Shown: positions 42,780-46,452 of the stretch, one piece after another
How positions within the stretch are numbered: position 1 is the stretch's first letter
How the letters are laid out: the number at the start of each line of letters is the position of its first letter
Source of the DNA: Candidatus Poribacteria bacterium
Lineage (GTDB): Bacteria; Poribacteria; WGA-4E; PCPOR2b
DNA: 64,000 bases
NCBI GenBank assembly: GCA_965116925.1
Contig: OZ220744.1
Span: forward strand, 2,176,001 to 2,240,000
Direction of reading: 5' to 3'
The notes under the pieces: generated by a model
What the model was told of the DNA's origin: nothing
The model's database searches: none
The model's input: only the letters and a program-made list of their open reading frames with translations
Translations under genes and position numbers: made by a program

Positions 42780-42784
42780 CATAT

Positions 42785-42902
42785 AGGACTTACGCATTTC
42801 AGCACAGTTGGTGCGGGACAAGTCCGAGGAGTATCCGTCCGTGCCCCCGATAGATCGGGACAGGCAGGATACAAGTACCTACAGTTGGCTGGATAAATCC
42901 TA
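42785..42902. mobile_element. Degenerate TAGGACTTACGCA-ended MITE (family B)
   Basis: Left end TAGGACTTACGCA; degenerate right end GGATAAATCCTA; internal CCCGATAGATCGGG palindrome. Confidence 0.5.
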
Positions 42903-42947
42903 AAAGTGTTAGATTTTGTTAGATTTTGCCAAGGGTGCCGTTAAAGT

Positions 42948-43204
42948 TAGGACTTACGCAGTAGGAGAGAATTCCGATTCTCGACATATGTGGTGTTTGA
43001 GGCTATGTTCCTGTCTTGATAAATTTAGTCTTTACATTTTCCATATTTGAAGCGTGCAATTCCTCCCCGTTCCGCTACCTCTGCGCGTGTGTAATGCGCT
43101 GGCATCTGCGGGGATTTCCATCGTCCCGCGACTTGCATATCCACAACAGACACTCCAGCTTGAGCAAGCGATATAGCAGATACACTTTAACTGCGTAACT
43201 CCTA
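42948..43204. mobile_element. TAGGACTTACGCA-ended element (family B) enclosing a REP and a recombinase fragment
   Basis: TAGGACTTACGCA (42948-42960) and TGCGTAACTCCTA (43192-43204), 12/13 inverted match; REP GTAGGAGAGAATTCCGATTCTCGAC at 42961-42985. Confidence 0.7.
43025..43186 (-). pseudogene. C-terminal fragment of a Cre-like tyrosine recombinase
   Basis: Manual translation SVSAISLAQAGVSVVDMQVAGRWKSPQMPAHYTRAEVAERGGIARFKYGKCKD*; W-x8-Y spacing as Cre W315/Y324; no start codon. Confidence 0.8.
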
Positions 43205-43278: not shown

Positions 43279-43296
43279 TTTAAATTTTTGAGGAGT

Positions 43297-43399
43297 TATA
43301 GCGAATTCAAAAAATAAAGAAACACTTGCGCTCCCCCGGTAGGTGCGGTTTGTAACCGCATCGGTTTGGCGTGTCCAATTAATTCTAAAATCTACTATA
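43297..43399 (-). mobile_element. Correia/RUP-like MITE, family A, copy 2 (103 bp)
   Basis: TATAGCGAATTC...ATTAATTCTAAAATCTACTATA; internal REP GTAGGTGCGGTTTGTAACCGCATC. Confidence 0.85.
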
Positions 43400-43474
43400 A
43401 ATCAATAGTTTAACTCTAAAAAAAATAAATTAGAGGGGAGTTGTGCAGTTTGTATTATACCCTATCTCAAGCGC

Positions 43475-43667
43475 TAGGGCAATCGCATGTAAATATTGTG
43501 TAGGATTTACACCCTTGAATTGTGAAAATTATTTCGTATTTCCTATCGTAGGTACAGATTTCCAATCTGTACGTGCCCCAGGGCAGCACATCTACGCTAC
43601 AACAGGGGATTACCCAGTGTTCTGATTGCCCAACTGCCTAATTCCTATAACAAATGCGATTGCCCTA
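43475..43667. mobile_element. ISAs1-type MITE (193 bp)
   Basis: Perfect 14-bp TIRs TAGGGCAATCGCAT / ATGCGATTGCCCTA; 10-bp flanking repeat TCTCAAGCGC / TCTCAAGCAC; internal REP at 43548-43572. Confidence 0.88.
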
Positions 43668-43777
43668 TCTCAAGCACTCGTTGAGGTTGGCAAGGCGGTG
43701 GGATATGTGATAAAATTTATCAAATTTCTCGGTAATGTACGGGTTTTGGTTTCCCCCTTAGAACTTGTGCGAGAGGA

Positions 43778-43826
43778 TTAGTAAAATTTACTAACATTAG
43801 TAAAATTTGCTAGCAATATTTACTAA
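43778..43826. promoter_or_regulatory. Three tandem palindromic sites, putative upstream activator (enhancer) sequences
   Basis: TTAGTAAAATTTACTAA (43778-43794), TTAGTAAAATTTGCTAG (43797-43813), CTAGCAATATTTACTAA (43810-43826); related TGATAAAATTTATCA at 43708-43722. Confidence 0.7.
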
Positions 43827-43913
43827 TAATCGAGTTATTTCCTTCAACGACTTTTTGACCATTTCGCCTTGAAAGCCCGATGCCCACTGGGTTTGGGCGA
43901 TTTTCGTCTCTTT

Positions 43914-43929
43914 TGGCATGTTAATTGCT
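43914..43929 (+). promoter_or_regulatory. Sigma54 (-24/-12) promoter
   Basis: TGGCAT-GTTAA-TTGCT with GG (43915-43916) and GC (43927-43928) at canonical spacing. Confidence 0.8.
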
Positions 43930-44117
43930 CCTTATGAGTTTGTGGTTGAATCCTTTAACCGTAACGCGTAGCGGAAAAGCATAGATTTTCAATGATTAGC
44001 AATAGATTAGCTTATTCTCAAAGCGGGTGTGCTAAGACATTTTGTGAAGTTGAAAATCTTTTCTTTCCGGACAGAATGCTAAACGCATTCTTAACAGTTT
44101 ATAGGAGGAATTAAAGT

Positions 44118-44280
44118 TAGGACTTACGCAATTCAGTAGAATGCCTTAATGGAGTCCCTACTGAAGTTGCCCGTCTCTTAATCCCGATAAATCGGGGATT
44201 CATCGGACGTTGGGAATTGTGTCCTGCAGCGATTCATCACCAAACTACAGGATCTCGATCGTTCAACTGCGTAAGTCCTA
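44118..44280. mobile_element. TAGGACTTACGCA-ended MITE (family B, 163 bp)
   Basis: Perfect 13-bp TIRs TAGGACTTACGCA / TGCGTAAGTCCTA; imperfect flanks TAAAGT / TAAGGT; internal CCCGATAAATCGGG. Confidence 0.85.
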
Positions 44281-44475
44281 TAAGGTGTTATTTGTTTCTA
44301 ACGTAGAAGTTTTTTCCCTAACGGAATGCTAACGCATTCCCTTTAATGCCAAAAGTTTCGACAAAAACAAAGGACTGTGTGATTCGACGATGCAGCCTTT
44401 TTCTGTGCCGATTTATCGGCATCCTCGACAAGTCGGGATTTTCAGGTCGAAACGATGGCTACAAGGAGATTCACT

Positions 44476-44874
44476 ATGTTTGCAACAAAAGGACGGTTGA
44501 AAGTCTTGTTGCTAGTAGTTTCGTTGTTGGTGGTTGGTTTGGGGATGTATGCGGCTTTTCAGGTTCAGGAAGTTCATGCCCATGTTAGATTCCATTCGGG
44601 GGCCGACAATGATTTATTTCACTACAGCAAATCCGGCCACAAATACAAGTGGAAAGATATGTCGTCGGATACGATCAGTGGTACTTGCTCGTATTGTGGA
44701 AGTTCGACTACAATCAATCGAACTCGCGTCAGAGAGGAGTGCTGGAATGTAACAAACACCTATCACCGTATAGTTCATTCTTTCTGTCACAGACATTGGC
44801 TTAATATAAAATGGGCACGGTATTATTGGCGGCTTGATTCGGTAACGTGTTCAAATTCAAGCTGCGGAGGTTAG
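44476..44874 (+). CDS. Secreted Cys/His-rich small protein (132 aa), function unknown
   Basis: AAGGAG RBS; signal peptide ending EVHA; mature part has 6 Cys (CSYC...C...C...CSNSSC) and many His/aromatic residues. Confidence 0.8.
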   Translation: MFATKGRLKVLLLVVSLLVVGLGMYAAFQVQEVHAHVRFHSGADNDLFHYSKSGHKYKWKDMSSDTISGTCSYCGSSTTINRTRVREECWNVTNTYHRIVHSFCHRHWLNIKWARYYWRLDSVTCSNSSCGG

Positions 44875-44956
44875 TTGAATCCGTATGAGCGCGTGGTTCG
44901 GGGCAGGTGGTTAACCTTGTCCTAGCCCATACATACTTATTGAGGAGGTTATTACC

Positions 44957-46312
44957 ATGTTCAATCGTCGTTTCATACCCTATATCATTCTGGCAGGACT
45001 GATACTGGTGTTATCGGCCTGCTACATCAGTTATAGGGCATATCAGAAACACCTTGCATTCGAGCGATTTATCTCGGACGCCTCATCGTTTAATAGGTCT
45101 ATTGAACACAACGACAAAGATAGGCATGTTCATCCTACCGATACGCATAGCCATCGACAGCGTGATGCCGATAGCAATCCAGTCCCACCAGCAGCAGATG
45201 ATATCGCTAACCCCTTTTTCATTGGCAAACAGGGCAATGAGTATGTTTATAAAGTCGGTGTGGGAGATTACGGGCATATCTATACATCTGAACCTTTTGA
45301 TCGGGGGTTTATAGAGATGCAAGCGTGGGAGATTACGGGCGAAAAAACCCCTTATGTGGAGAAGCGTCTAAAGGAGCTTGCCGAGAATTCGCCCTATAAA
45401 GGTCAGGTTGTCCAGCGAATCGTAACCCCTGACGGTCAACTGCACAACGTGATTGTCCCGCACGACAGGCAGTATGAGGAAGGGGACGCGATATTACGGT
45501 CAGAGTTAGACCCGCCGATTTTAGAAGCACTTGAGCAGGACCAGCCCCCAGCGCGTGTTGAGGTAGCAGGCGAACCGATACCCGATGAATACTATGCGAT
45601 AGAAGATCCCTATGAACGTCACGAGTTCATAGACAAGGTCGGACTCAGTAAACAATTAAAGATCTCGATGGTGGAGATTGAAGCAAAGATAGCAAAGGGT
45701 GAAATTGATGTGTCGTTATCGGCGACACAAAAAGAGAATGTCGATAACAACCTGGCAATGGAGGAAAGAGGACGTATATTAAACTCTTTTGCCAAACCGG
45801 TTCCGTCTGATAAACCGCCGGTGAAGGTGCGGTTGCTGTCTGATACTGCTGAAGACGCACTACCGGGGTGGATGCGAAAATTGGGGGACACCCTCCCGTC
45901 AGGAAGTAGCGAGGCAGTACCCGATGGGGACTATTCAGCAACAGACCCCTTTTCTGAGGGAAGCATCAATGAAGATGCAAGTGGTGCCCCGGTTCGCTCT
46001 GATGTTCCTGTATCTCCATCAGATCTCCCCGATATAGTCAAGCCTATATCCCCTCAAAGTGTAGCGGACATTGAAAAACAGTTGACACCACAGGGGATTG
46101 AAGCGGAACTGAGCGAAGGGCTATCACCGGAGCGTTTTGATAAGGCACAACAGTTGATAGACCAGTACGGCACAGAGGAGGGGCTTCGTCGCCTACGGAC
46201 GATGGATCCTGAAGCAGCTCGTCGATTTGAGTCCGATAAATCGAGACCAAAGCGGGAGCGACGCAATTCACCTACCCGTGACACATCGGATGATGCAGCC
46301 TCGACACAGTAG
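44957..46312 (+). CDS. N-terminally membrane-anchored hypothetical protein (451 aa)
   Basis: GAGGAGG RBS; single N-terminal TM, His-rich linker, acidic Pro/Ser-rich region, C-terminal helical SPERFDKAQQLIDQYGTEEGLRRLR..DPEAARRFE block. Confidence 0.85.
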   Translation: MFNRRFIPYIILAGLILVLSACYISYRAYQKHLAFERFISDASSFNRSIEHNDKDRHVHPTDTHSHRQRDADSNPVPPAADDIANPFFIGKQGNEYVYKVGVGDYGHIYTSEPFDRGFIEMQAWEITGEKTPYVEKRLKELAENSPYKGQVVQRIVTPDGQLHNVIVPHDRQYEEGDAILRSELDPPILEALEQDQPPARVEVAGEPIPDEYYAIEDPYERHEFIDKVGLSKQLKISMVEIEAKIAKGEIDVSLSATQKENVDNNLAMEERGRILNSFAKPVPSDKPPVKVRLLSDTAEDALPGWMRKLGDTLPSGSSEAVPDGDYSATDPFSEGSINEDASGAPVRSDVPVSPSDLPDIVKPISPQSVADIEKQLTPQGIEAELSEGLSPERFDKAQQLIDQYGTEEGLRRLRTMDPEAARRFESDKSRPKRERRNSPTRDTSDDAASTQ

Positions 46313-46336
46313 GGTTGCGTCTGAGATTCACACTGT

Positions 46337-46377
46337 AAGCGGTATCACGCCCTTTTGGGGGGTGATACCGCTTTTTT
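46337..46377 (+). terminator. Rho-independent terminator closing the two-gene module
   Basis: AAGCGGTATCAC...GTGATACCGCTT stem followed by a T run. Confidence 0.88.
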
Positions 46378-46452
46378 ATTTATCTCTGAGAAAAAAGTCA
46401 GGGACTGGCTTTTTAACCCTTCCCCTTGCATATACGCCTTGACTAGATCTTC

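Follow-up and report, generated by a model that had tools for sequence, protein, structure and literature searches.

Paired cassettes of small exported proteins and tail-bearing membrane partners in Poribacteria: putative effectors and immunity proteins under interchangeable control regions

Introduction

Bacteriocins and microcins that are exported by the Sec pathway, such as lactococcin 972 and microcin V, are accompanied by membrane immunity proteins, and the lipase-specific foldases (Lif), which combine an N-terminal membrane anchor with a flexible linker, are encoded directly after the exported protein. At the level of control, the PspF/pspA and HrpS types represent sigma-54 activators without a sensing domain. 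The toxins of polymorphic toxin systems are multi-domain as a rule, as stated in the 2012 survey by Zhang, de Souza, Anantharaman, Iyer and Aravind (PMC3482391). In this work we examine a locus that shares traits with each of these systems, namely a cassette of two open reading frames (ORFs) downstream of a sigma-54 promoter, of which ORF1 encodes a small protein with a signal peptide and ORF2 a membrane-anchored partner. The cassette lies in a stretch of 64,000 nucleotides, hereinafter the window, which corresponds to C1:2176001-2240000 of a 6.47 Mb, 99% complete genome (G000) of Poribacteria, a group described as abundant, uncultured sponge symbionts (PMC3909097).

An initial annotation of the window took this locus for a self-contained cassette driven by sigma-54. 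The parts that it listed are all in place, including the -24/-12 box, the 132-aa protein with its signal peptide, the 451-aa partner with a single helix, the ribosome-binding sites (RBS) and the terminator, and its statement that neither protein belongs to a recognised family stands. Comparison with relatives places the locus in a family in which small exported proteins and anchored partners pair class by class, partners that have lost their small gene stay under selection, cassettes insert at a hotspot, and two control regions replace one another. We estimate at about 0.5 the probability that the cassette consists of an exported effector directed against rival cells and a membrane-tethered partner that binds and neutralises it.

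A family of cognate pairs

ORF1 contains six Cys and nine His residues; cleavage of the signal peptide, predicted after an AxA motif at residue 33, would leave a single-domain mature part of 97 aa with the pattern CxxC...CxxxxC, in which the CxxC and a C-terminal Cys are invariant in the window's class of small proteins. The AlphaFold2 (AF2) model (mean predicted local distance difference test score, pLDDT, 85.9) has three long beta strands of 21-24 residues (14-35, 42-62 and 67-90). The signal peptide belongs to one family that fronts unrelated mature parts, that is, a constant trafficking part with exchangeable cargo: behind related leaders we find beta-meanders, 8-Cys helical hairpins, Ala-rich hydrophobic hairpins and Gly/Ser-rich proteins. 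Modification of ORF1 as a ribosomally synthesised and post-translationally modified peptide (RiPP) was considered and rejected, there being no maturase at the locus and the radical SAM gene belonging to a different copy of the sigma-54 module.

The partner has 307 homologues at E<=0.001, named Candidatus Poribacteria. In its AlphaFold model, about five residues precede the membrane helix (4-49), which is followed by a folded middle domain (pLDDT about 90), disordered linkers and a three-helix tail (limits in Table 1). The middle domains are acidic in all 41 pairs compared (-17 in the window). For the partner, LSAC at 19-22 might point to a lipoprotein; this was discarded, the Cys not being among the conserved columns of 111 homologues. 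The tail, which makes a searchable marker of the whole family, is present in seven ORFs of this genome and in 121 of the 176 genomes of the phylum (1-34 copies each; 412 clusters at 50% identity); across the species collection, 46 of the 47 loci among the matches listed are from Poribacteria, the 47th being a weak Actinomycetota match (E 1e-5). It is conserved as a protein, with a median dN of 0.26 and dS of 1.52 over 71 tails; a reading of the tail as a mere DNA recombination arm was rejected, since its synonymous sites are far more diverged than the non-synonymous ones.

Neither ORF1 nor ORF2 scores above the cut-off in Pfam, NCBIfam or PHROGs, and the same holds for every small protein and partner in wider searches of Pfam (111 partners, 23 small proteins and 52 cassette proteins), NCBIfam (44 cassette proteins) and PHROGs (17). 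The ESM Atlas gave no usable match for either protein. In the PDB sequence search the partner profile had no matches and the tail four weak ones (E 0.16-1.4). Foldseek returned best E values of 0.14 (PDB) and 0.05 (viral) for the ORF1 model and 0.41 for the partner model, and VIA a best Z of 5.1 for ORF1 (rmsd 2.8, 50 aligned, a designed protein) and of 4.9 for the partner, the latter dominated by the membrane helix with the middle domain barely probed. Fold searches without a clear match do not show that the folds are new.

The loci L003-L119 contain 90 distinct tail ORFs, from which 20 were dropped (partial, split, without a called anchor or near a locus edge); among the remaining 70 full-length tail proteins, 39 have an ORF of 60-220 aa with a signal peptide directly upstream. 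In a second, newly fetched set of 20 full-length tail proteins, most from other genera and 14 from another family, the figure is 10, under a slightly different filter that also required two Cys, compared with 4 of 227 control genes of this genome with comparable size and anchor. Conversely, a profile of the small protein found 47 places, of which 30 were fetched; all 25 intact small genes with visible downstream DNA (26 were intact) are followed by an intact partner, 24 times with a tail, and although 13 of these were in the training set, the other 12 all had a partner as well. Hence the expectation that homologues of the two genes co-occur is borne out in the form of cognate pairs.

The pairing is by class. 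The partners of 41 pairs fall into 11 clusters and the small proteins into 17, and no small-protein cluster spans two partner clusters. In 33 of the 41 pairs, with 3 expected, the nearest neighbour of the small protein is among the three nearest of the partner, and the similarity of the mature part correlates with that of the partner middle domain at r=0.81, compared with r=0.43 for the signal peptide; permutation p-values overstate these associations because the pairs are related, and r=0.81 itself overstates co-adaptation because linked genes co-vary anyway. Over 10 independent pairs, the pooled ratio of non-synonymous to synonymous rates (dN/dS) is 0.68 for the mature small protein, 0.51 for the partner middle, 0.39 for the anchor and 0.17 for the tail; point estimates for the mature part, without a significance test, exceed 1 in four of the ten.

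Orphan partners and what they may bind

The two genes are not lost symmetrically. Three broken small genes have intact partners, and one truncated 83-aa small gene has none; 31 partners lack a called small gene, 11 of them standing behind a broken or 5'-truncated one and 16 having none directly upstream, with the other four missed, ambiguous or split off by an insertion sequence. Tandem partners also exist without small genes. After trmFO, the genomes G010 and G009 share the breakpoint of a small-gene deletion, and over the divergence since their split (dS 0.15) the dN/dS of the orphan partner is 0.42 for the whole gene and 0.26 (p=0.001) for the middle domain. In the other 11 comparisons with at least one orphan the whole gene is under purifying selection; for the middle domain, two of these are not significant and one is borderline. 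Three genomes (G010, G003 and G021) have partners of the window's class and, by the class profile, no intact small gene. This pattern of kept partners and lost small genes is that of effector-immunity systems.

Could the partner rather be a dedicated periplasmic chaperone or display scaffold, similar to the lipase foldases, with the pair acting on the sponge host or as an adhesin? The anchor-linker-domain architecture of the partner and its retention behind every intact small gene would fit, and G5 rods of surface proteins are among the best fold neighbours of the small protein, albeit within the background of unrelated rows (Z 4.8, rmsd 6.4-7.3 A, 74-89 aligned). However, a chaperone should decay without its client and a binder of neighbours' proteins should not, so that the selection on orphans, in genomes where no intact cognate gene was found, argues against a chaperone, as do the tandem partners without small genes. 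We consider this possibility improbable; of the roles that the initial annotation had allowed for ORF2, immunity and receptor are favoured by the orphan data and display is disfavoured.

A polymorphic ligand-receptor system without killing accounts equally well for the pairing, the asymmetry and the selection on orphans. The small protein would then act as a signal specific to the strain or scavenge metals through its His and Cys, with the partner as its receptor and the orphan partners as eavesdroppers or cheaters; His and Cys are indeed conserved in the window's class, and the constant tail could relay a signal or cargo to a shared component. Yet the partner lacks an output domain and has but about five residues ahead of its membrane helix, the site maps show no recurrent kinase or transporter next to the cassettes, and several cargo classes contain 0-2 His, which argues against a single metal-binding role. 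Control by a terminator and an antisense promoter, described below, also fits a costly or harmful product better, and on balance we find the ligand-receptor scheme rather unlikely.

An 80-aa membrane-anchored CxxC protein (L005:3510-3758, minus strand, and four relatives) often stands 3' of partners of the 8-Cys class.

A portable sigma-54 module

Five more copies of the stretch 43663-44009 occur elsewhere in the genome. Each of the three tandem palindromes predicted as activator sites (43779-43793, 43798-43812 and 43811-43825, 89-135 nt 5' of the -24 box) is borne out by these comparisons; the fourth that the initial annotation had added is perfect in the window, but the closest copy has it in imperfect form and the remaining four lack it. 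A genome search with the palindrome alone, using a pattern derived from the module copies themselves, gave 115 box groups, six of them tandem (two or three boxes) and 109 single; a -24/-12 box lies 87-88 nt beyond the last palindrome in all six tandem groups and in none of the single ones (random background 0.7%). Of 40 module matches in the fetched loci (one place being counted twice), throughout which the palindromes are conserved, 39 retain TGG[CT]-N7-TTGC. The module is present in 15 of the 20 genomes of the genus and, in other genera of the family, as 34-nt traces only, in one of nine genomes. Thus a GG-N10-GC box, palindromes at a fixed spacing and a genome with rpoN and activators are found together, and the proposed sigma-54 promoter with upstream activator boxes is upheld. 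The rpoN gene encodes the canonical RpoN box ARRTVAKYR; a second, divergent rpoN-like gene with the box ARRTVTYYR is found in L002 (G000 C1:5246670-5247068). Two motifs in the conserved spacer are presumably IHF-site-like, and a motif search found one HU/IHF-like ORF in the genome.

Among 31 matches to the sigma-54 activator domain in the genome, 25 are strong. The best candidate for binding the palindromes is the clade of C1:2829526-2830572, which combines an AAA+ domain with a Fis helix-turn-helix (HTH) in a 349-aa form without receiver or sensing domain; binding is predicted from genomic association. This clade is whole in 11 of 29 family genomes, all within this genus, and in most of these 11 stands divergently next to a module copy; counting partial matches in G004 and G012, it adjoins a module copy in 12 of the 20 genomes of the genus; in G011 the match is about 8 kb from the module. 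In the genome of the window the candidate is encoded elsewhere and not at the locus, so that the cassette is not self-contained as had been supposed. The signal-inducibility that the initial annotation ascribed to it is hypothetical, the candidate activator having no sensing domain.

The module is real and portable but is foreign to this protein pair, because it occurs in only one of the nine cassettes of the same partner class, that of the window. Sigma-54 control is accordingly not supported as a property of the pair: within its own class the -24/-12 box is not conserved upstream of homologues, whereas in the wider family it is.

What follows the module copies on the 3' side is mostly small ORFs of exported type and single-helix partners, of several designs. 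Directly 3' of the module in L006:7414-7608 (G000 C1:4673913-4674110) and L150-L158 are exported-type peptides of 65-80 aa with a near-constant leader and a hypervariable His/Cys/Trp core of 30-45 aa, usually followed by a PMT-like glycosyltransferase gene; in G000 the genes for a radical SAM/SPASM protein and an SBP_bac_5 protein precede the copy. Just 5' of that radical SAM/SPASM gene, a short acidic ORF containing CCSYS (L006, G000 C1:4670152-4670325) is likely to be a RiPP precursor; the best model, TIGR04280, scores below the cut-off. In G017, a Cys-rich exported-type protein (L145:3057-3518, minus strand) and the product of the next ORF, both with a double-glycine-like motif after the signal peptide, stand behind a module and a 680-aa protein. 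In another type of cassette under the module the gene order is reversed, a tail-less anchored protein of 255-270 aa preceding the small exported-type protein (L004:8519-9283, L143, L144, L145 and L083). Finally, a module copy beside rnpB, the gene for RNase P RNA, has two related 100-aa proteins and a tail-less anchored protein on its 3' side (L007:5133-5774, minus strand); in G003 a partner gene occupies the same rnpB site.

An attenuator-type leader as the other control region

Among the 41 paired cassettes, the module lies within 1 kb in six, a full attenuator-type leader is found in 19 and a partial one alone in two, and the other 14 have neither; of the nine cassettes in the window's partner class, five have the full leader. 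In the paralogous pair of this genome that is most similar to that of the window (70% and 73% identity), such a leader is combined with a sigma-70-like promoter. Full leaders (29 matches, in 17 of the 20 genomes of the genus) end in a terminator immediately 5' of the RBS, and all 27 that could be aligned contain a reverse-strand promoter of the TTGAAA-17/18-TATACT type. An alternative helix, 98.9% paired, would block the terminator; its covariation does not reach significance, 119 of 500 shuffles scoring at least as well. Antisense-attenuator control is thus predicted for the sister cassettes. An Rfam search of the leader found nothing at the gathering threshold, and isrD (E 0.001) and TD-1 (E 0.06; PMC1950547), both below the cut-off, were dismissed as its identity.

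The leader also occurs outside intact cassettes: at L179:396-2108 (G000 C1:5131396-5133111) it stands 5' of a 571-aa GMC oxidoreductase, which we take to be cholesterol-oxidase-like, with a twin-arginine-like signal, and at G000 C1:5108841-5109150 a full leader is followed by a short signal-peptide-like stub only, that is, an emptied cassette slot.

In the window the two control regions meet. Instead of the single long leader of the initial annotation we see a patchwork in which the module with its native 5' untranslated region (UTR) is followed by a repeat that resembles a miniature inverted-repeat transposable element (MITE) and then by the cassette's own short leader (Table 1). The UTR terminates in the RBS AGGAGG (44103-44108), whose gene is lost; the MITE-like repeat has 64 matches in the genome, four of them near full length; and the short leader is also present in cassettes at the same site in G017 and G012. 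The window copy of the leader has lost its 5' half and the antisense -10 box, and its hairpin (about 44369-44403) is weakened to -9.8 kcal/mol, compared with -21.1 in an intact copy, so that it does not qualify as an attenuator. Comparison of copies identifies the locus as a recent splice of module, MITE-like repeat and cassette leader. Mismatch-free contigs span the module-MITE junction in runs X10 and X11 (43814-44205 and 43957-44205) and, in X11, the MITE-leader junction (44177-44493), with the qualification that X10 or X11 may itself be the source sample of the genome.

Table 1. Features of the cassette locus (positions in the window)
Feature	Position	Strand	Basis or remark
Tyrosine recombinase 3' remnant, about 50 codons	43031..43180	-	tblastn, 86% identity to residues 255-304
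Fourth palindrome, unconserved, probably outside the enhancer	43708..43722		copy comparison
Three tandem 15-bp palindromes, TAGYAA-N3-TTRCTA type	43779..43825		predicted sigma-54 activator sites
Conserved spacer with two motifs, presumably IHF-site-like	43843..43896		high column conservation among module copies
Sigma-54 -24/-12 promoter, TGGCAT-N5-TTGCT	43914..43929	+	predicted start site near 43940
Native 5' UTR of the module	43930..44110	+	85-93% identity to other copies, ending 44106-44107
MITE-like repeat with inverted ends, at the junction	44111..44286		arms 44118-44133 and 44265-44280
Short leader of the cassette, 3' half of attenuator-type leader	44281..44474	+	nhmmer model positions 88-197
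ORF1, small protein, putative effector	44476..44874	+	132 aa, signal peptide and mature part
ORF2, partner, putative immunity or receptor protein	44957..46312	+	451 aa; RBS GAGGAGG at 44942
Folded acidic middle domain of partner, residues 85-310	45209..45886	+	AF2 model
Three-helix tail domain, residues 391-428	46127..46240	+	common to nearly all partner classes
Intrinsic terminator	46337..46380	+	hairpin 46337-46373, then T's

ORF1 has the RBS AGGAGA at 44464, and an alternative 5' ATG at 44455 would extend it to 139 aa. The terminator, which a simple terminator scan did not list, has a folding energy of -28.4 kcal/mol (46330-46385), and its hairpin also closes the cassettes at the same site in G017, G010, G009 and G012. 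Contig pieces from the sponge metatranscriptome runs X1 and X6, of one study, match portions of the two ORFs (about 90-98% identity, low depth), with DNA carry-over possible; X2 and X9 hardly cover the ORFs.

The insertion site after trmFO

A trmFO match is found in 19 other genomes, 16 of which have the order trmFO, vgb-like gene, pyr genes. Twelve of these 16 have nothing in the gap and four have different cassettes there, and intact tyrosine recombinases of 305 aa (matching PF00589 and phrog_1) are present at this site in G017 and G012. The site 3' of trmFO is a cassette hotspot with a recombinase remnant, in agreement with the decayed mobile islet that had been suspected. Three kinds of genome-wide repeats are also found in the islet (43296-43402, 43475-43666 and 42784-42986), the first with 369 matches in the genome, 187 of them near full length.

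These observations raise the possibility of selfish addiction, with toxin-antidote pairs spread by the tyrosine recombinase and kept by post-segregational killing. Recombinase homologues near several cassettes, the patchy copy number (1-34 per genome) and the antisense promoter of all 27 full leaders would be expected under such a scenario. However, the toxin candidate carries an export signal, addiction by itself would not lead one to expect selection on orphan antidotes, and in IMG/VR 36 pattern matches yielded no confirmed phage copy. We regard addiction as very improbable.

Proposed mode of action and its weight

The effector-immunity reading could be realised as follows. A sensor-less sigma-54 activator (C1:2829526-2830572), acting in trans, would bind the three palindromes and open the -24/-12 promoter. 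The small protein would be exported by Sec and fold into a long three-stranded sheet, probably held by disulfides. Its way out of the cell may then be one of two secretin systems: two secretins and no VipB match were found in the genome, which makes export past the outer membrane possible as far as gene content goes. The partner would remain anchored in the inner membrane, where its variable middle domain would catch the cognate small protein while the constant tail would dock on a shared envelope component. Recombination would exchange the block of mature small protein and partner middle domain between the constant signal peptide and the constant tail, and strains that lose the small gene would retain the partner as protection.

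Several facts weigh against this interpretation, in addition to the co-variation of linked genes mentioned above. No toxin or bacteriocin domain was found in the 52, 44 and 17 cassette proteins searched with Pfam, NCBIfam and PHROGs, respectively. The charge of the small proteins in the 41 pairs is mixed (median -1; ORF1 +6), so the group is not cationic. One partner class takes three small-protein clusters, and in the window's own class the mature part has a dN/dS of 0.37-0.49, which denotes purifying rather than diversifying selection. It is also conceivable that an orphan partner acts in trans for some divergent small protein that escaped detection. At 320-490 aa the partners are unusually big and have a conserved tail in common, which is more than immunity by itself would require. 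On the side of control, sigma-54 activators usually have the contact-loop motif GAFTGA; that of the candidate is GA(Y/F)TDA, and its activity is only predicted.

A more far-reaching proposal, which we offer as tentative and on the whole doubtful, is that of a phylum-wide arsenal in which exported small effectors with a variety of unrelated and undescribed folds would each be neutralised by a modular, membrane-tethered antidote, connected through the three-helix tail to a single envelope machine; with cassettes shuffled between sigma-54 and antisense-attenuator control, this would amount to a kind of bacterial conflict system not described before, in a dominant symbiont of sponges that is uncultured. 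The family bears in any case on how Poribacteria strains compete with or recognise each other. It comprises hundreds of small exported proteins that belong to no known family, each with a predicted cognate binder, and the pairs can be tested in laboratory strains for toxicity, protection and binding without culturing Poribacteria; proteins that kill would supply new antibacterial folds, proteins that signal a new polymorphic recognition code. The regulon of the sigma-54 module, for its part, has six defined members and a candidate for its activator. In the literature searched, which did not include the Poribacteria pangenome paper (Podell et al. 2019) that may bear on novelty, we found no prior description of the proteins, of the tail that the partners share or of the exchange between two control modules; the cassettes are not mentioned in the accessible portions of PMC5087111 and bioRxiv 2023.06.09.544420.

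Comparison with known systems

The closest parallel is with the polymorphic toxin systems as presented in PMC3482391. As there, a constant 5' trafficking part is joined to swapped 3' cargo, the cargo gene precedes the partner, and (section 41) the partner travels with the cargo, with strings of orphan partners, tandem partners and remnants; in our family, cargo-then-partner order, cognate co-variation, orphan partners, tandem arrays and cargo remnants are all found. By contrast, the cargo here is a single domain of 60-170 aa behind a bare signal peptide, with no clear match to a toxin fold, the unrelated partner classes share an N-terminal anchor and one tail domain, and toxicity is putative. 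The unit works like a polymorphic toxin system but is filed as a non-member, because ORF1 does not have the multi-domain structure of such toxins and lacks a known toxin domain.

Like the Sec-exported bacteriocins and microcins, the cassette has a small exported protein of disulfide type beside a membrane partner, and some relatives controlled by the same promoter have hydrophobic hairpins or leaders with double-glycine-like motifs. Unlike them, it has no Pfam or NCBIfam bacteriocin match, belongs to a group that is not cationic, lacks a dedicated transporter beside it, and has a partner made of one helix and a large soluble domain; as for class II bacteriocins and microcins in particular, which are cationic amphipathic peptides that have a double-glycine leader and their own ABC exporter, mature ORF1 is instead a 97-aa beta protein with a Sec-type AxA signal and no exporter in its flanks. 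The Lif foldases share with the partner the anchor, the linker and the gene position after an exported protein, but no Pfam match was found in 111 partners, and these persist under selection without a client, the orphan middle domain showing no decay.

The sigma-54 switch is an already known kind of control. It resembles the PspF/HrpS type in its -24/-12 box, in tandem boxes about 90-135 nt upstream, and in an AAA+ plus Fis-HTH activator without receiver domain that stands divergently beside a module copy; it differs in that the module is copied as a portable unit (six in the genome), that the GA(Y/F)TDA activator would act in trans at this locus, and that no anti-activator was identified here. 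Finally, the full leaders of the sister cassettes are comparable to the pT181 attenuator (PMC3753616) in having a terminator, a possible antiterminator helix and a convergent promoter; they differ from it in being chromosomal and in fronting exported proteins, the window retaining a degenerate 3' half only.

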